Shown piece after piece: positions 46,306 to 53,255 of a stretch of 55,774 bases of DNA (the first letter of the stretch is position 1; each line of letters begins with the position of its first letter). A program made the position numbers and the translations under genes. The notes under the pieces are model-generated. The model saw only the letters and a program-made list of their open reading frames with translations, was not told the origin of the DNA and did no database searches. The stretch comes from Parcubacteria group bacterium RIFCSPLOWO2_01_FULL_48_18 (GTDB lineage: Bacteria; Patescibacteriota; Minisyncoccia; UBA6257; WO2-01-48-18): the NCBI GenBank assembly GCA_001824435.1, contig MHXH01000026.1:1-55774 (forward strand), given 5' to 3'.

Positions 46306-46355
46306 TTTAACTAGATAATTCCGACCAGCAAGCTGGTCGGAATTATCTAGTTAAA
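46306..46355. repeat. Perfect inverted repeat with 24-bp arms and a 2-nt loop
   Basis: tttaactagataattccgaccagc-aa-gctggtcggaattatctagttaaa. Confidence 0.95.
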
Positions 46356-46375: not shown

Positions 46376-46918
46376 TTATAATTTCGTCTTTCGCTTCAAG
46401 GTATTAGCCGGCAGTAAATTCTTCAACCATTCCTTGTGTGATCTTAAATCGCCCACAGCACCGCCGTGATAAACTTGAATATAAACCATTCTCCCTTTGT
46501 AATAGATTTTTTCTTCGCCCTCCACGAATCCGCGTTTTTCAGAAGACTTATTTCGATAAAGCCAATGGTTCTTTCTATAACCATCCAATCCACGATGGAC
46601 TGATTTACCCGATCCCGCTCGAAGCGCTTCTTTGAGAAAGTCGAAGATTATATCCGCCTTGGGTCTTCGTACGGTCACGATCCCATAATAATTCAATCCG
46701 TAAACTGGTTGCTTTCGATAATAGTAGATGGCCTGCCCGATATTTTGTTCCTGCCCCGTGTATCTATCAATTATTTTGTAGTTCCCTTTCCTGTAATAGA
46801 TTGCCTTAAATCTCGGTAGAAATGGATCCACATACTTTTCGGGGTTTCCTCCATATCCTTTCGTCTTATCCTGACGTAAAGAAATTTCTCTGATTTTTGC
46901 TGTGTGTTTATTCCTCAT
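46376..46918 (-). CDS. DUF5680-like protein
   Basis: GQ..YY...PVYGLNYYG, FLKEAL, RG, GEEKI, YHGG pattern; ATG 46918 (MRNKH) preferred. Confidence 0.65.
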   Translation of the reverse strand: MRNKHTAKIREISLRQDKTKGYGGNPEKYVDPFLPRFKAIYYRKGNYKIIDRYTGQEQNIGQAIYYYRKQPVYGLNYYGIVTVRRPKADIIFDFLKEALRAGSGKSVHRGLDGYRKNHWLYRNKSSEKRGFVEGEEKIYYKGRMVYIQVYHGGAVGDLRSHKEWLKNLLPANTLKRKTKL

Positions 46919-46935
46919 GGCCCATGACGCTTTTT
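46915..46935 (-). repeat. secA-tail-like remnant KKRHGP-stop
   Basis: AAA AAG CGT CAT GGG CCA TGA; the stop overlaps the next ATG. Confidence 0.6.
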
Positions 46936-47129
46936 CGCGTTTAAATAATACCGCGCACGGATTTTTCTTTATCTTAAGCCGTTTTTCCAAGCCATGCACC
47001 TATCGAATTGGTTGGACTAAAGAAAATATCATAGGGATTATCGCCTCAATCCCTCAGTTTTAAATCTTTGACATGCAGTCCAGCCCATGCTAACTTTAAA
47101 CCAAATCACATCGGAAAGGAGATATCGCA

Positions 47130-47293
47130 ATGAAGGACCTCGGGAAAGCGATTGCAACAGTTGCTATTTGGGGTGGAACCGTAGTTCTTTCGTATCTTTC
47201 CATCAATTCGGGATCCTAACAGGACCTGGAGCGTTTCTGATGGTTCTTGGAGCCATTCTGCTCACAGCGGCACTCTGGAACCTCAGTTCTTAA
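47130..47293 (+). pseudogene. Small two-TM protein gene with an apparent 1-nt deletion
   Basis: TTGACA-17-TAACTT promoter and AAAGGAG RBS; MKDLGKAIATVAIWGGTVVLSYL continues in another frame as FHQFGILTGPGAFLMVLGAILLTAALWNLSS; 164 nt. Confidence 0.65.
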
Positions 47294-47508
47294 TCTCATC
47301 TCCCTGTATCCGCCCAGCTCACATGAGTATGGGTTTTTTTCTTATCCCTGCGTCATGTGACACTTCTTATATTTCTTCCCGCTGCCGCCCCGCACCGGAG
47401 TCCTTCGACCCATTCAATCTTATTCAGGGTCGCCCTGAAGAAATTGAAGGGCGACAAATTCAGGACACGGTGCGAGACTTCGCTTTATCTATACAAGTTA
47501 TTTTCGAA

Positions 47509-47529
47509 TTACTGCCCATGACAACGTTT
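47509..47529 (-). repeat. secA-tail-like remnant KRCHGQ-stop
   Basis: AAA CGT TGT CAT GGG CAG TAA. Confidence 0.7.
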
Positions 47530-47561
47530 GATGTGCGATACGAATAGGAAATACCCCATAA

Positions 47562-48347
47562 TCATTCAAATACAATCACTATAAGGGATCTCTCATGTCC
47601 GTAATGCTCTGAATCTTCACTATTCATTTTTCCCGAAAATTTTGCAATTCGATCTTTTAAATCGTCACTTCTTTCTAAAAAGAGCCTTTGGAAATCGTGA
47701 TTCTTCACATAATGCTCAAAACCATCAGTGAATACAAAGATGCGGTCTCCTCTTTGAAGGTCCAAAACACCACGCCCTAAATGATCGACCATTTCTGATT
47801 CACCATTAATAACTGCGTAAGGAGTGCATGCTCCCGTGGACATAAATTTAAGATTCATGTCTTTGTCAAAATGTGCTACAAAAGAATCGCAGATGGATGC
47901 CCAGTATGCTTTATTCTCACGAATAATAACAAATGAACCCGTAGCCGAATAAAACCCTGTTTTATTTCCTGATATATCAGTTTTACCTATTTTTTTATTG
48001 TAGTCGGCAACAGCATTATTTGCTTCTTTAAAGACATTTATTATTTCTTCCGCATTGAACGTGGTATATTTTACTTTAACGCTTTTTAACACTGCTTCAC
48101 AAAATATCTTGGCAACTTCTCCTGCGGGCGACGGATCAGGATATTTTTTATTACTTTCAGCTAACTTCAGAAAGTTTAAAGTAACGCCATCAGAAACAAC
48201 AAAAATAGGAGGCGTATCTGATACAATTAAATAATCTTCTTGGGGATGTCGGTAATTTTCTGTTACATACTCAGTAAGATTCCTTTCCTTGGCAAAGTGC
48301 TGAATTACTTCTTTTGTAGCCTGTTCTAAGACTGAAAATGTTTTCAT
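47562..48347 (-). CDS. PP2C-like phosphatase
   Basis: QED, VVSDG, ICDS, FTDG motifs; AT-rich. Confidence 0.75.
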   Translation of the reverse strand: MKTFSVLEQATKEVIQHFAKERNLTEYVTENYRHPQEDYLIVSDTPPIFVVSDGVTLNFLKLAESNKKYPDPSPAGEVAKIFCEAVLKSVKVKYTTFNAEEIINVFKEANNAVADYNKKIGKTDISGNKTGFYSATGSFVIIRENKAYWASICDSFVAHFDKDMNLKFMSTGACTPYAVINGESEMVDHLGRGVLDLQRGDRIFVFTDGFEHYVKNHDFQRLFLERSDDLKDRIAKFSGKMNSEDSEHYGHERSLIVIVFE

Positions 48348-48470
48348 TTACTTTTTGAGAGCCGCCGATGCTCTTCTGTATTAACAAGCCCCCCAACGTT
48401 TATATTTCTTTGGACGCCCATCAGGATGTCTCGCTCCGCAAGGACACGACGGATCGTTGCGGCCCGCCTT
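48344..48470 (-). pseudogene. Degenerate SEC-C motif / SecA C-terminal fragment
   Basis: Translates KAGRNDPSCPCGARHPDGRPKKYKR, then after a shift in a G-run GLVNTEEHRRLSKSK-stop; its TGA overlaps the next ATG. Confidence 0.85.
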
Positions 48471-48507
48471 CGTTCACCCCTGAAAAACTTCGGCGAGCAA
48501 GCCGATT

Positions 48508-48768
48508 TTATCTATAAATGTCTTTGCGGTGGCCGATGCGCAGAACATAAACTATTTTATCTCTGGAATTAACGTCGTATAAAATTCGATGATCCCCAAC
48601 GCGAGTCCTGAATTGAGCCAATCTTCTATCTTTTAAATGTTTAGTGTTGGGCCTATATGGATTTTGAACCAATGACAAAAGCGCCCGATCTATTCTTGGT
48701 AAAATCGAGCGCTCTAATTTTCTTAAATCTTTTTCAGCGGCAGGGCTCAAAAAAATCTAAAAGTTCAT
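48508..48768 (-). pseudogene. RelE-family toxin with an in-frame TAG at codon 4
   Basis: ATG AAC TTT TAG ATT TTT TTG AGC CCT...; RTRVGDHRILY, IGHRKDIYR; the ATG overlaps the antitoxin stop. Confidence 0.75.
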
Positions 48769-48977
48769 TTTAACAAACTCTTTCTTAGCTCTCTATAAGT
48801 TTTAGCTTTTTTATAATCTTTTCTTGCTTCTCTAATACTCTCTAAGAGCTGTGGCGAAGAAAGTTCAGAAATAATATCTTCGATTTGCTGCCATTGATTT
48901 AAAGATAAAACCACCAAAGGCGAGCGCTCCTTCTTGATTTGAATATTGATATTTTTCAATAAAGTTTGAGTAGTCAT
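48765..48977 (-). CDS. Putative antitoxin (Phd/YefM-like C-terminal helix)
   Basis: LVVLSL.QW..IED...ELSSP.LLESIREARKD; directly upstream of the RelE-like gene. Confidence 0.75.
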   Translation of the reverse strand: MTTQTLLKNINIQIKKERSPLVVLSLNQWQQIEDIISELSSPQLLESIREARKDYKKAKTYRELRKSLLK

Positions 48978-49021
48978 AACCCAAGCATAAAATAACAAAA
49001 TTAATAAGTCAAAATCTATCC

Positions 49022-49042
49022 CTACGCCCCATGACATCTTTT
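49022..49042 (-). repeat. secA-tail-like remnant KRCHGA-stop
   Basis: AAA AGA TGT CAT GGG GCG TAG. Confidence 0.7.
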
Positions 49043-49054
49043 GATCTTCAATAA

Positions 49055-49585
49055 CTAACCGCGGGAATAATGATTAAAATATTTCTCAAATGTATCGGCT
49101 GGTGTTTGTCCAGTCGTATCAATAAAGTTTTCTTTACCGACCGCGTTTTTTATCGCCTCAAGTTCGGCACAAACCGCCGATATACGATTAATTCCCGTTG
49201 TCCAGCATTCACGTTCTTTATCTCTTTTAACCATTTCTGCTTTAGTTGGGAATAGAACCTTAATTTCCAACTTATTCCCGAATTCTTTCTTAAACATTTC
49301 GAAAAATTCCAGATAATTGCCGAGGATAATGTAATCGAGTACAACATTATTTTCGCTGTTGTTAAATATTTTCTTAACCTCGGTAAGAATCTTTTCTTGC
49401 GCTTGTTTCAACTTTTCAGAATTCTCCGGAAACCACTGACCACCGTTAGGAAAGAATTCGGTATCCAAATCATCGCCATCAATCTTAATAAATCCGCATC
49501 TTTCAATCAATAAATCGGCAATCGTGGTTTTACCAGAACCTCCGGGACCAGTTAAAATTAACACCTTTTTCTCGCTATTTTTCAT
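49055..49585 (-). CDS. P-loop kinase-like protein
   Basis: ILTGPGGSGKTT, IDGD, RDKER lid-like motif, IDTT; ATG 49585. Confidence 0.8.
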   Translation of the reverse strand: MKNSEKKVLILTGPGGSGKTTIADLLIERCGFIKIDGDDLDTEFFPNGGQWFPENSEKLKQAQEKILTEVKKIFNNSENNVVLDYIILGNYLEFFEMFKKEFGNKLEIKVLFPTKAEMVKRDKERECWTTGINRISAVCAELEAIKNAVGKENFIDTTGQTPADTFEKYFNHYSRG

Positions 49586-49599
49586 AGTTTTTATCGTTC

Positions 49600-49620
49600 C
49601 TATTTCCCATGACATCTTTG
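49600..49620 (-). repeat. secA-tail-like remnant QRCHGK-stop
   Basis: CAA AGA TGT CAT GGG AAA TAG. Confidence 0.7.
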
Positions 49621-49624
49621 GTTT

Positions 49625-49900
49625 TTACTCTCTATCCCGCATAAATCTTTGATTCCTTTTCAACCATAATTTCCTGAAGAGCGGCATGGTCAGCGTTGAA
49701 AGCATAAACGCCACTGCAGGTACCACTGCATTCAGCCACGGTCGCGAAATATCAATCGCCCACATATACACTCCGACTGCCAAATAAGTAAAAAGCGTTA
49801 GTAGAATCCGCCGCGTCCAGCTGGTTTCCCATGCTTTATCGGCTTCAACTCGCAGATTTCGTTCTTCAATTTTTTGAACTTTTTGTTCTATACTTTCCAT
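49625..49900 (-). CDS. Small membrane protein
   Basis: IEERN.RVEADKAWETSW.R followed by two TM segments. Confidence 0.75.
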   Translation of the reverse strand: MESIEQKVQKIEERNLRVEADKAWETSWTRRILLTLFTYLAVGVYMWAIDISRPWLNAVVPAVAFMLSTLTMPLFRKLWLKRNQRFMRDRE

Positions 49901-49933
49901 ATTTTTCGCTCTTAGTACGAACAGCAGCGCGTG

Positions 49934-50308
49934 TTACGCGCCGTCTTCCACCAACGCAATTTGATTACCTTCCGAGTCCTTAAAAAAGGCGGCTCTTCCC
50001 CACGGAAATTCTATGATGTCTCCCGCAATCTTAAGCGAATTAATCTGGTTTGTATCAATAAAAAATTTCGCGCCGCTTGCCTTAAGCTCTTCTACTGCAT
50101 TTTCAAGATTCGCTACGCGGAATTCCAATCCGCTCTCGGTGCCACCGTGAAGATACAGGTGAATTTCCGCTCCCGCGGCCTCAAACGACGCCCAGTCCGC
50201 TTCTTTACAGATGAGCCGCGATCCCAGCACGTCACGGTAAAAAGCAACCGCGCGATTTAAATCATGTACCCGTATATCAATAATCAACTTCTTCAACTCG
50301 GGTTTCAT
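49934..50308 (-). CDS. VOC/glyoxalase family protein
   Basis: V.DL.RA.AFYRDVLG, F.V.NLE, PWGR.AFFKDSEGN. Confidence 0.9.
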   Translation of the reverse strand: MKPELKKLIIDIRVHDLNRAVAFYRDVLGSRLICKEADWASFEAAGAEIHLYLHGGTESGLEFRVANLENAVEELKASGAKFFIDTNQINSLKIAGDIIEFPWGRAAFFKDSEGNQIALVEDGA

Positions 50309-50317
50309 GTATTTTGG

Positions 50318-50563
50318 CTAATCCCATTCTTGAAGAACGCGCCCATCTCTATCCACCTCAATATAGCTCGGTTCCGGAAGTTCCATTCGATTTTCGGCGA
50401 TCATTCGGTATACACACGAAGTTCCTTTATCGTTCCGCGAATCATACGCGACGCCACGGTATTCTACTACTTGAGGAAATTGCCGATATTTCCAATCGTA
50501 GACAAATTCTTCTATTCGTGAATCACCGGGTTGTTTTTCACGTTTACGCTCCATAAATTTCAC
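50318..50563 (-). CDS. Hypothetical protein
   Basis: 81-aa ORF fitting the gap; start may be the ATG three codons later. Confidence 0.55.
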   Translation of the reverse strand: MKFMERKREKQPGDSRIEEFVYDWKYRQFPQVVEYRGVAYDSRNDKGTSCVYRMIAENRMELPEPSYIEVDRDGRVLQEWD

Positions 50564-50592
50564 CTTATTGCTTACAACGCATCAGGTTTTTG

Positions 50593-51243
50593 TCACAATT
50601 TAAACGATCGTCTTAAGATTTCTGCTGCTTTCCGCGGGTTCCCTCTCCCTATAGGAAAATAGCACGGCGCAACGCGAACGCGCAAACCCGAAATTCTTTC
50701 TGCTTCTTCAGTTTGTTTACCGCTCCAGCATTCGGATAACTTTAGCGGCTTTCCCGTTAACGTCTTATACACCAACCCGCCGAATGCGACTATCTTTTTT
50801 GGTTTAACTATGTTTATTTCTTCTGCCAACAACTTCATTTGATGATGTATCACCTTTGTATCCGGATACGCGCTATGGCTATAACAGCATTTTACCGCGT
50901 TGGTCAAAAACAACTTGCCCCTCATTAACTCCCTTTGCAGCTGTTTTGTATGCCGCAATGTCCAATCCGCTCTCGGCGGCAACCCGTACGCGACTTTCTT
51001 ACTGACTAATCCTCCATCTGCCAACACTTTCCAAAATTGCCGCACCCCTATAAACGGAAACCGATCTCCGTGATATTCCGGACTGGAACTTAAGTTTCTA
51101 TAAGTCGGATTTATCAAAACAAGCATCAGTCGGGGGTTCACCACGCCATAGCCATGAATGTGCTGCAGTTTATTTTTTTCCGTTTTGCAAAACTTACATT
51201 TGTCTGCCTGCGTATATAACTTTTGCAATTTCGTATTTCTCAT
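50593..51243 (-). CDS. Uracil-DNA glycosylase family 4-like protein
   Basis: CKFC near the N-terminus, PFIG, FLTNAVKC, EINIVKPKKIVAFG. Confidence 0.75.
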   Translation of the reverse strand: MRNTKLQKLYTQADKCKFCKTEKNKLQHIHGYGVVNPRLMLVLINPTYRNLSSSPEYHGDRFPFIGVRQFWKVLADGGLVSKKVAYGLPPRADWTLRHTKQLQRELMRGKLFLTNAVKCCYSHSAYPDTKVIHHQMKLLAEEINIVKPKKIVAFGGLVYKTLTGKPLKLSECWSGKQTEEAERISGLRVRVAPCYFPIGRGNPRKAAEILRRSFKL

Positions 51244-51260
51244 GATCCATGACGCTTCTG
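51240..51260 (-). repeat. secA-tail-like remnant QKRHGS-stop
   Basis: CAG AAG CGT CAT GGA TCA TGA; the stop overlaps the UDG ATG. Confidence 0.55.
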
Positions 51261-51263
51261 CTA

Positions 51264-53255
51264 TTAACCAACGCGCACAAACTCATCTTTTCTGATATTT
51301 TTCAATCTCTGAACAATGGCTTCGCGCGAAATTTCTTCATAGTCCAAAAGTTCTTCCGGTTTTCCGCTTTTGGGCATTTTTCGAACCGCGAGCGAATGTA
51401 CAACTATCCTGCTTCCGGCCAAGGCGCTCGTAACCGCCTCGCCAATTCCTCCTTCGGCAAAATGATCTTCAACTGTAATGATTGTTCTTGTTTCACGCGC
51501 GGCTTTTTGAAGCGTTTCCACATCAATGGGTTTAACGCTATAAAGATCGATGACGCGCACCATAATTCCCTCTTTCTTCAACTCTTCGTATGCCGCCAAT
51601 GCTTCATGAAGCGTAATGCCTGCGGCAACCACGGTAGCCGCATCGTTCGGCGATTGATGCAACACCTTTGATCCTCCAATCGGAAATGCTTCGGTCAGCT
51701 CATACAAAATCGGGGTGTCTTTTCTGGTGGTACGAATATATACAATTCCTTTATATGCTACCGCTCCTTCGACAAGTTTTTCTGCTGACACTGCATCAGA
51801 CGGGTACAATACCGCGCTGCCAAGAATCGTTCGAAACATAGCCAAATCCTCAAGTCCCATCTGCGAAGCGCCGTCTTCTCCAATCGACACGCCCGCGTGG
51901 GAACCGCAGAATTTGATACCTGCCCCGAGCGCAGTCGAGGGGTTCGCATTCGAGTACTGCGACATCCTAATCTGATCAAATGCTCGCGTAAAAAAAGCCG
52001 CAAACGTGGATACAAACGGAATTTTCCCTCTTCGAGAAAAACCCAAAGCCGCTCCCACCATATTCTGTTCGGCAATGTACATTTCAAAAAATCTATCGGG
52101 GTATGCCTTTTTGAATGTTTCTGAAAACGTAGAGTTGCTCACTTCGGCATCAAGCACGACCATATTGGGATATTTCGGAAATATACGAACTAAGGCGTTT
52201 CCGTATGCTTTTCGCGTCGCGACCGGTTTGCCTTTAGCGTAATCGAAGAGTTTATCTGCCGCAGACGAAACTGTCCCAACCGTTTCAAAGTCTATACCCT
52301 CATTCGCGCGAATCGGGGGTAGGATTTCAGGCGGGGGTTTTTTAATTTCGCCGCGAACGCCTTTATCTATTGCCCCCAATTCTCCCAACGCTTTCTGCAA
52401 TTCTTCTTTACTTAATACTTTACCGTGCCAACCGTCCTGATTTTCAATAAATGATACACCCTTGCCTTTTATGGTTTTCGCGATAATCATGCGCGGAGCA
52501 TTACTTTCCTCGCCTACCGCCTTTTCATACGCATCAAGTATTTCCAAAAAAGAATGTCCGTCAATAACATACGTCTTCCAGCCGAATGACGAAATACGTT
52601 TTTCGTACGCCGCGACATCGTGCCCGTACATCGTTTCTCCCCGCTGACCCAATCGATTTACATCCAGAATGCCAATAAGATTATCCAAGCCGTAGTGTGC
52701 CGCAATTTGCATTGCCTCCCAGACTGATCCTTCTGCCATCTCGCTATCGCCCAAAAGCACATACGTACGGTACGGCAGCTTATCAACATATTTGGCATTC
52801 AATGCCATGCCCACGCCGATCGAAAGTCCTTGTCCTAAAGAGCCGGTAGCTGCTTCGGTGAACGGAAAAGCAGGCGTCGGATGCCCCTCGAGCGGGCTGC
52901 CGAATTTTCTGAAGGTCAGCAACTCTTCCGGACTTACTTTTCCCGCCGCTGCCCAGAGAGAATAAAAAAGGGGCGACGCATGCCCCTTGGAAAAAATCAG
53001 CCGGTCATTGTTCGGATAATCAGGATTATCAAGATCATAGCGGAAGAAACCGCCCGCCGCAGACGAGACTCGCTCATCGGAAGATGAGTGGCCGAACAAA
53101 AGCGCGCACATCAAATCCGTCGCCGAAAGAGACGATGTCGGATGACCTGACCCGGCTTCAGTTGAAGAAATTAATATATAGTAACGGATGAGCCTGGAAA
53201 ACTCTTCCAGATTACGTATATTTACCCCACGCAAATTTATTCCACGCGCGCTCAT
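51264..53255 (-). CDS. tkt: Transketolase (start codon uncertain)
   Basis: SGHPTS, SKGHA, LEGHP, TGSLGQG, GDSEMAEG (TPP-binding), IAEQNM, GEDGASQ, TVEDH. Confidence 0.95.
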   Translation of the reverse strand: MSARGINLRGVNIRNLEEFSRLIRYYILISSTEAGSGHPTSSLSATDLMCALLFGHSSSDERVSSAAGGFFRYDLDNPDYPNNDRLIFSKGHASPLFYSLWAAAGKVSPEELLTFRKFGSPLEGHPTPAFPFTEAATGSLGQGLSIGVGMALNAKYVDKLPYRTYVLLGDSEMAEGSVWEAMQIAAHYGLDNLIGILDVNRLGQRGETMYGHDVAAYEKRISSFGWKTYVIDGHSFLEILDAYEKAVGEESNAPRMIIAKTIKGKGVSFIENQDGWHGKVLSKEELQKALGELGAIDKGVRGEIKKPPPEILPPIRANEGIDFETVGTVSSAADKLFDYAKGKPVATRKAYGNALVRIFPKYPNMVVLDAEVSNSTFSETFKKAYPDRFFEMYIAEQNMVGAALGFSRRGKIPFVSTFAAFFTRAFDQIRMSQYSNANPSTALGAGIKFCGSHAGVSIGEDGASQMGLEDLAMFRTILGSAVLYPSDAVSAEKLVEGAVAYKGIVYIRTTRKDTPILYELTEAFPIGGSKVLHQSPNDAATVVAAGITLHEALAAYEELKKEGIMVRVIDLYSVKPIDVETLQKAARETRTIITVEDHFAEGGIGEAVTSALAGSRIVVHSLAVRKMPKSGKPEELLDYEEISREAIVQRLKNIRKDEFVRVG

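Follow-up and report, generated by a model that had tools for sequence, protein, structure and literature searches.

We have analyzed a stretch of 55,774 nucleotides (the window in what follows), which is the entire contig C26 of a groundwater Parcubacteria (Patescibacteria) metagenome-assembled genome (MAG) of 29 contigs and 1.21 Mb. On its minus strand, between positions 46376 and 51260, small accessory genes are separated by remnants of the 3' end of secA, that is, of the SEC-C zinc-finger end of SecA; we call these remnants tails. In our view this is rather probably an array of integron-like cassettes bounded by copies of the secA tail, with the 3' end of secA as the attachment site. Cassette homology ends at a sharp boundary, the same cassettes occur among varied neighbours, and in other genomes they are linked to secA; from this we infer the recombination reaction itself. 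What we see suggests that genes are captured and exchanged here in a manner not described so far, and the full texts that we searched, without their supplementary files, held no description of cassettes or of integration at the secA end. Below, C labels contigs of the host genome (G000), L the compared loci and G the compared genomes.

Copies of the secA end at the gene junctions

An earlier note, made from the letters of the window, had described five minus-strand copies of the heptamer GTCATGG at gene junctions, and this clustering holds (P about 2e-6). Over the whole window and both strands there are 8 copies versus 4.79 expected. Five of them (46922, 47516, 49029, 49607 and 51247, the last one ending at 51253) are on the minus strand within a span of 4332 nt, where the expectation for a single strand is 0.19-0.21 copies. 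The probability of five or more is between 1.6e-6 and 3e-6, depending on whether the shuffle rate or the genome-wide rate (119 copies) is used. Read on the minus strand they give exactly the peptides listed before, QKRHGS, QRCHGK, KRCHGA, KRCHGQ and KKRHGP, each followed by a stop. The peptide expression proposed in the earlier note for a genome-wide check has 16 matches in the 1.21 Mb, 5 of them inside the array, and none of the matches terminates a long open reading frame (ORF).

A DNA profile (nhmmer) was built from 12 tails. With a threshold of E<0.02 it detects 13 sites in the genome, seven in the array, three on contig C1, two on C24 and one on C16, and the next best match has E=1.2. An independent repeat finder also placed the tails as its top-ranked direct-repeat families; it reported only direct-repeat families at the window tails and no inverted repeats. 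Altogether the array contains eight tails that are solid or positionally supported (T1 to T8) and a possible ninth (T1b); T7 (47326-47394) and T1b (50544-50581) had been overlooked before. The perfect core is kept in five of the eight tails while their middle parts are decayed. No open frame at the tails is longer than 36 aa, and the only tail above the Pfam cutoff, T7, has no first Cys pair. At none of the window tails does a complete Cys-x-Cys ... Cys-His/Cys motif end a real protein. Across 200 genomes of the phylum the Pfam model, which is insensitive, found mostly one SEC-C match each. A position-wise comparison of conservation between orphan and real tails was discarded as circular, the anchor being the core itself.

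The features of the array, in the direction of transcription, are the following.

51264..53255, minus strand: fused 663-aa transketolase (tkt) gene (Pfam), possibly itself a cassette gene
51240..51293, minus strand: tail T1 (..VRVG-stop-stop-QKRHGS-stop), nhmmer E=7e-4; its stop overlaps the UDG start (ATGA)
50593..51243, minus strand: UDG family-4-like gene, a cassette (Pfam, NCBIfam)
50544..50581, minus strand: possible degenerate tail T1b (..IYGA-stop), not detected by the nhmmer tail profile; its position matches the orphan tail after UDG in G071
50318..50563, minus strand: 81-aa ORF, no family in family searches
49934..50308, minus strand: VOC/glyoxalase-fold gene (Pfam)
49912..49932, minus strand: weak tail T2 (TRCCSY-stop), aligning with the secA end KKCHGx-stop in L064 and L071
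49625..49900, minus strand: 91-aa membrane protein gene, a cassette; homologues behind secA and in a tail array
49587..49650, minus strand: tail T3 (LCGIESKNQRCHGK-stop), with full SEC-C spacing, nhmmer E=7e-6, repeat family D1
49055..49585, minus strand: P-loop kinase-like gene, a cassette (Pfam)
49005..49072, minus strand: tail T4 (SRG-stop-LLKIKRCHGA-stop), nhmmer E=2e-7, in frame with the kinase end
48508..48983, minus strand: toxin-antitoxin pair (Pfam), with a Phd/YefM-like antitoxin at 48765-48983 (weak match) and a ParE toxin at 48508-48750
48380..48470, minus strand: tail T5 (GRNDPSCPCGARHPDGRPKKYKRWGAC-stop), full-length copy of the host's own long-type secA end, core decayed
47562..48347, minus strand: PP2C-like phosphatase gene (Pfam)
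47489..47546, minus strand: tail T6 (..HIKRCHGQ-stop), whose end CATGGGCAGTAA and next box match the secA end and its downstream DNA on C1
47326..47430, minus strand: tail T7 (GSGKKYKKCHMTQG-stop), copy of a short-tail module found 50-90 nt after secA on C1
47087..47293, plus strand: 68-aa ORF on the opposite strand, no family
46896..46985, minus strand: tail T8, a long variant (..KIKKNPC..KKRHGP-stop), nhmmer E=2e-6; its stop overlaps the DUF5680 start
46376..46933, minus strand: DUF5680 gene, the last cassette (Pfam)
46306..46355, no strand: perfect 24-nt palindrome with a 2-nt loop (I1 of the repeat finder), at the array end right after the last cassette

T1 and T8 are 88% identical over 24 nt (repeat family D4). 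The T8 variant is found also in L037, L025 and contig C24, and the 5' arm of T6 resembles the tails of L038. T3 and the 3' end of the membrane-protein gene share nucleotides, read in different frames. The overlap of a tail stop with the next start codon (ATGA), announced earlier for three junctions, exists at two (51240 and 46915). Orphan endings also disturb annotation by introducing short ORFs and false start codons. Tails (..AGATGTCATGG..) make the MSW... starts of the kinase ORF (49615) and the antitoxin ORF (49037), whereas translation of kinase and antitoxin probably begins further downstream, at the ATGs of 49585 and 48983.

Derivation of the tails from secA

The sole secA of the host is intact and found on another contig than the array (C1:40222-42825). 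It ends in an unusual long SEC-C motif with an AKHPDGRP insert, and among 185,579 species genomes the nearest SecA C-terminus is only 48% identical; it is by comparison of SecA that the MAG is assigned to the Parcubacteria/Paceibacteria within the Patescibacteria. T5 carries this same insert. It matches the end of the host secA at 92% over 66 nt by blastn and 87.5% over 24 aa by tblastn, the homology ending just ahead of the core; the longer degenerate SEC-C copy noted at a sixth junction is real. About 50 nt after secA, contig C1 has a degenerate tail of the short type, the module copied by T7 (90% over 39 nt by blastn; a local alignment extends over 62 nt). T7 at 47326-47394 is also the best PF02810 match in the genome, with 22.7 bits. 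T6 ends in the last bases of secA itself, followed by the box AGCGAAGT.. as on C1. The tails derive from secA, as had been supposed from their peptides.

Because T5, T6 and T7 match the secA end and its downstream DNA on C1, we read 48470-47326 as what would be the secA end of this lineage, with the PP2C cassette probably inserted between ..AAACGTTG and TCATGG... The inserted block has AAACGTTG on both sides.

The module has clearer relatives elsewhere. A box AGCGRAGTCC, a hairpin and a short tail xDGSGKKYKKCHGK-stop are found within about 40-60 nt of long-tail secA genes in L004, L011 (L011:8812-8887), L016, L020, L044 and L081, and degenerate versions of box and tail at C1 42870-42946 and in the window at 47326-47430. 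The 'ADG' codons of the short tail form the 3' strand of the hairpin stem. This module may be an empty attachment site or an RNA element.

Orphan tails behind secA and at other loci

We surveyed 80 secA loci of other Parcubacteria, and in about 20 of them orphan tails appear downstream of secA, on its strand (L009, L011, L016, L019, L020, L025, L034, L036, L037, L038, L039, L040, L042, L043, L044, L056, L064, L068, L076 and L081). The automated count was 21 of 80, a figure that includes the tail of secA itself, miscounted at some loci, and omits two other loci. The tails favour the secA strand. Over 469 kb, 31 downstream matches are on the same strand (4 of them the tail of secA itself) versus one on the opposite strand, and nhmmer gave 79 plus-strand matches, the own tails of secA included, versus one on the minus strand. 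L037 has six or seven tails within 2.4 kb. One of them, 1.1 kb downstream, repeats about 80 nt of the L037 secA end almost without change.

In the host genome itself, a Nudix gene with two flanking tails (C1:42930-43394) comes directly after secA. The same gene and both flanking tails are found behind secA in L009, and the gene with its upstream tail recurs in the L038 array. Presumably mutT lies directly downstream of secA in E. coli too. The cargo of the foreign arrays comprises NUDIX (four), dCMP deaminase, MazG-like, two methyltransferases, Pol-beta nucleotidyltransferases, GNAT, AlaX-like, CutA, PCC, DUF3850, HicAB and RelE genes, and no recombinase is among it. Nearly the same HicB/HicA-like pair occurs in the secA-downstream arrays of L025 (3433-3897) and L038 (11506-11970).

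Tails are found away from secA as well. The one-contig genome G315 has an array of six tails with no secA within 12 kb upstream. In the host, two orphan tails lie behind gltX (C24:73679-74121), the second before a gene that by eye is HD-domain-like. Another lies between an HTH regulator and a putative shikimate kinase gene (aroK, by eye) at C16:68658-68726, preceded by a hairpin resembling one in L038.

Cargo genes shared with other genomes

A metagenome scan yielded six further loci for the kinase. One of these is the L068 contig again, and 7 copies, 6 of them independent, could be compared; the window kinase is 76-81% identical in amino acids to the 6 other copies. With the gene directly behind secA in L068 the identity is 79%, where the SecA C-termini share only 37%. 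Together with the GC content of the array (0.41-0.42 versus about 0.48 in the genome), this agrees with the different donors suggested in the earlier note. The kinase is directly behind secA in three copies (L068, L090 and L093), behind another tail in L094, and behind a CutA-like gene and a degenerate tail in L091, while L095 starts inside the gene; in L093 the unit after the kinase is a Nudix cassette. All 7 copies have the same tail at their 3' end and their neighbours vary. Compared in pairs, the copies have an identity of 0.83 for codon positions 1+2, 0.57 for position 3 and 0.58 for the tail, and in the 40 nt past the GG of the core it falls to 0.28, a sharp end. Between the window copy and L068, dN/dS was 0.08 and dS about 1.5, indicating that the kinase is functional and that the transfer is not recent.

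Other cargo genes repeat this pattern. The 91-aa membrane protein is 84% (L064) and 66% (L071) identical to genes located right after the secA stop, and the weak tail TRCCSY-stop, already noticed at 49912-49932, sits exactly where secA has KKCHGx-stop before the same gene. We searched 250 genomes of the class for homologues of this protein, UDG and PP2C. The closest membrane protein was that of G315 (74-78%), inside the six-tail array. The closest UDG (67%) was found in G071 directly behind secA, followed by an orphan tail and then a putative SecD-like ORF, named from its N-terminus. The start codon of this UDG is the ATG within the Cys-His-Gly core of secA. The gene (L115, G071:C7 1380-1950) is frameshifted and overlaps the secA end by 11 nt. 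There are weaker links for DUF5680, with a 30% homologue about 700 nt behind secA in L028, and for the DUF2061 gene upstream of tkt, 34% identical to one in L034. The earlier note had supposed that each block once sat directly behind a secA-like gene. This is what we see in other genomes for relatives of the kinase, membrane protein, UDG and Nudix cassettes; in the window the array itself sits behind a transketolase gene. PADLOC, run on 10 cargo proteins, gave just three matches of 17-20 bits, of sub-threshold kind, and no defence cargo.

Surroundings of the array

The transketolase gene is of a fused form that has close homologues in only 2 of 40 relatives, G006 (66%) and G038 (63%), both of which end 7-9 residues earlier and have no tail. 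Its last nine or so codons (RKDEFVRVG) resemble a degenerate RNDPCPCG, and this is why we regard T1 as fused to the tkt end. A second tkt, split as is usual in the relatives and in the order, is on C5 (6567-8067). Downstream of the array, at its far end beyond the palindrome, the ORF at 45910-46299 matches only the last third of transaldolase (profile 199-281 of 285, below cutoff) and is a truncated gene. Upstream of tkt, at 53-55.7 kb, there are only hints of tails, ..LGRNGLRKELS-stop at the contig end and AWGKYT-stop at 53212, for which we make no claim. Promoter- and terminator-like sites were at chance level, and a search of the window and of six loci with Rfam yielded nothing but a tRNA in L034. 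The GC skew keeps a single sign from about 6 kb to 54 kb, where the profile ends, array included. There is no switch at the array, and a position at the terminus or a dif site was rejected for this reason.

The contiguity of the region was checked in Logan assembled contigs of sequencing runs. The stretch is present in ten runs of seven studies, with at least half of its words in seven of these runs, and error-free contigs of independent runs bridge T3, T4 and T8 with the same gene order. Apparent joints (47388/49023 and similar) were rejected, as their sides have only 20 letters and come from the secA ends of other organisms.

Proposed mechanism and candidate enzyme

We propose that the region is an array of eight or more small gene cassettes, each delimited by a copy of roughly the final 60 nt of secA, and that such cassettes circulate among Parcubacteria with the secA 3' end as their normal site. 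Exchange would take place at or beside the core TGYCAYGG, which codes for Cys-His-Gly. The incoming cassette would contribute one codon and a stop after GG, and SecA would stay intact in consequence; secA is indeed intact on C1 and at the cassette-bearing loci. The tail-like 3' end of the cassette would then join the DNA that formerly followed the core, becoming an orphan tail, and repeated events would stack cassettes co-oriented with secA, an orientation that makes read-through from secA possible. Copies of the tail may also found arrays at other genes or bring them there, and the array behind transketolase would be an example. The earlier idea of repeated integration near KxCHG that displaces the old tail is supported in this form, with a correction. 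The new arrival seems to give only the codon after CHG and a stop, and rather than being supplied as a new tail for secA the tail-like segment appears to travel at the 3' end of the cassette.

Neither an intI gene nor attC-like inverted repeats had been seen in the window before, and we found none either; no IntI gene lies next to the array in the host genome. The host has a single tyrosine recombinase (C4:30519-31481, beside rpsO/pnp), which scores as XerC/XerD/XerA (XerC, 232 bits) and reaches only 121 bits with the IntI model, for which the cutoff is 265. Five other genomes with arrays were checked. Four of them possess a single Xer-like tyrosine recombinase and in the fifth there are two partial matches; the serine recombinases of these genomes number from 0 to 4, with none in G042. 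The Xer-like tyrosine recombinase is thus the only candidate enzyme common to all genomes checked. The host has in addition six large serine recombinases of 461-586 aa (C4:1530, C4:37914, C6:924, C6:7784, C20:54763 and C21:6), none of them near a tail.

In five other genomes, seven tails contain two 8-bp arms in inverted orientation, separated by 7 bp. This spacer covers the Gly codon and the one that follows, the point where cassette homology breaks. These dyad-type tails are at L037:10557, 10919 and 11253, L034:8871, L040:6141, L042:7879 and L129:13758. Their spacer spans the secA stop and is followed by a pentamer GYAAT (GCAAT in six, GTAAT in L040), and a second core comes after six of the seven; the host genome has no tail of this type. 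The window tails retain the left arm only.

A number of observations weigh against the cassette reading. No recombinase is linked to any array examined, no array element contains an integrase gene, and at the window tails there is no inverted right arm or attC-like hairpin. The full-length T5 and the copy of about 80 nt in L037 fit a homologous duplication of the Campbell type better than an exchange at a single point. The left junctions of the kinase copies vary by up to 11-17 nt, the tails are no better conserved than third codon positions, and the dS of about 1.5 means that the transfers are not recent. Both the array in the window and that of G315 are away from secA. PP2C homologues are present in 7 of the 250 class genomes, and none of these loci has a tail or secA within 1.5 kb; no tails were found near distant homologues of UDG (0 of 4) or of the membrane protein (0 of 7). 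These tail-free homologues fit with genes being recruited from ordinary loci and later spread as cassettes. For at least some events, the T5 and L037 duplications and the unevenness of the left junctions favour recombination by way of homologous tails.

The full proposal goes further. Parcubacteria would possess a platform for gene capture in which the zinc-finger end of secA is the site, cassettes mimic it, the single Xer-like enzyme of the host acts in trans at the Cys-His-Gly core and rebuilds SecA, and tail copies spread arrays elsewhere. We put it forward tentatively, as a possibility that we would not expect to hold in every part.

Alternative explanations

The strongest competitor accepts the same cassettes and tails and does away with a dedicated enzyme. 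The SEC-C segment of about 60 nt, whose DNA sequence is conserved throughout Parcubacteria, would be a portable homology for RecA or for short-homology recombination, and uptake from other cells or loop-out between tails would duplicate the tail and add cargo. The duplicated segments do vary in length, being nearly identical to the resident secA end over 27 nt in L068, about 80 nt in L037 and 66 nt in T5, and the missing recombinase, the tail decay at about the neutral rate and the arrays at loci other than secA also favour it. However, distant hosts share only about 20-60 nt, in 7 kinase copies the cassette homology ends at one and the same position, after GG, the core is perfect in five of eight tails with decayed middles, and dyad-type cores exist in five genomes. 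We regard this explanation as rather unlikely for the phenomenon as a whole, although a serious one.

It is improbable that the tails are kept as cis-acting expression signals (RNA hairpin, terminator or coupling) while gene order changes by ordinary rearrangement. The box, hairpin and short tail after long-tail secA recur in at least six genomes, with 4 of 13 predicted pairs compensatory, and the tail stop overlapping the next start at two junctions and the UDG start inside the core in G071 also speak for such a role. Yet such signals have no Rfam match, the promoter- and terminator-like sites are at chance and the window tails have no hairpin, and the varied neighbours of the same gene and tail and the break of homology at the core are left unexplained.

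A third possibility, for which we see very little chance, is that each cargo gene once had a functional C-terminal SEC-C finger of its own, since decayed, with no mobility involved. Some tails are in frame with the upstream gene (kinase ..NHYSRG-stop, tkt ..VRVG-stop-stop), and the L093 kinase reads through an open half-motif. But the majority of tails have internal stops or lie in another frame, the kinase tails have no first Cys pair, T5 to T7 copy secA plus non-coding DNA downstream of it, and in other genomes the tail before the cassette is that of secA itself. Finally, a misjoining of contigs at the conserved secA ending can practically be dismissed: the SEC-C end is common to many community members and foreign contigs pile up on T7 (depth of 48 in its bin versus about 5-6 in most other bins), but degenerate tails are not shared k-mers, the independent error-free contigs and the ten runs of seven studies described above hold the region together, and arrays recur in about 20 MAGs of different projects and in a one-contig genome.

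Significance and comparison with known systems

Bacteria of the candidate phyla radiation have tiny genomes with few recognised mobile elements and no cultured genetics, and little is settled about how accessory genes reach them. The cassette reading describes a recurrent hotspot with a defined sequence, readily located by a simple profile, where cassettes are attached to the end of a gene that is essential and expressed. With its cargo of nucleotide house-cleaning enzymes, toxin-antitoxin pairs, kinases and phosphatases, this would be a concrete way, open to testing, for genes to move between distant Parcubacteria. If a Xer-like enzyme of the host is truly responsible, the idea of modules that exploit Xer would come to include a coding target away from the terminus, and a minimal cassette system would be at hand for study in vitro.

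The array resembles integrons in its small, mostly single-gene and co-oriented cassettes, in its diverse accessory and toxin-antitoxin cargo, in the site-like 3' end of each cassette, in boundaries that fall inside a short core and in the varied neighbours. It differs in having neither IntI nor attC inverted-repeat hairpins. What is conserved in the sites here is their sequence, which imitates a coding end, and not a hairpin structure, and the platform is the 3' end of an essential gene that would be rebuilt at each insertion.

Elements that depend on Xer are also small modules, devoid of a recombinase of their own, bounded by short sites and shuffled between replicons. They use the host Xer in trans, a role for which the Xer-like enzyme here is a candidate. 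Our sites, whose likeness to dif is putative, are direct and not alternately inverted, and our array is chromosomal, tied to secA and off the GC-skew switch. Elements of this kind include IMEX and the dif modules of Acinetobacter (PMC6449649, PMC13141974).

Arrays of orphan modules of polymorphic toxins (Rhs, CdiA-CT) likewise have a repeated coding segment before displaced modules that serves as a handle for recombination. The handle is the N-terminal core there and a C-terminal ending here, and our arrays have no toxin-immunity tips, the toxin families being those of ordinary toxin-antitoxin pairs only. Integrative islands at the 3' ends of tRNA and protein genes share with our array the direct repeats that copy the end of the target and leave it intact, and the displaced ends that accumulate downstream by tandem accretion. 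Those islands measure many kb and bring their own integrase, whereas the units described here have 0.3-1.5 kb, one to three genes and no integrase, and a copy of the tail would travel with each of these tiny cassettes.

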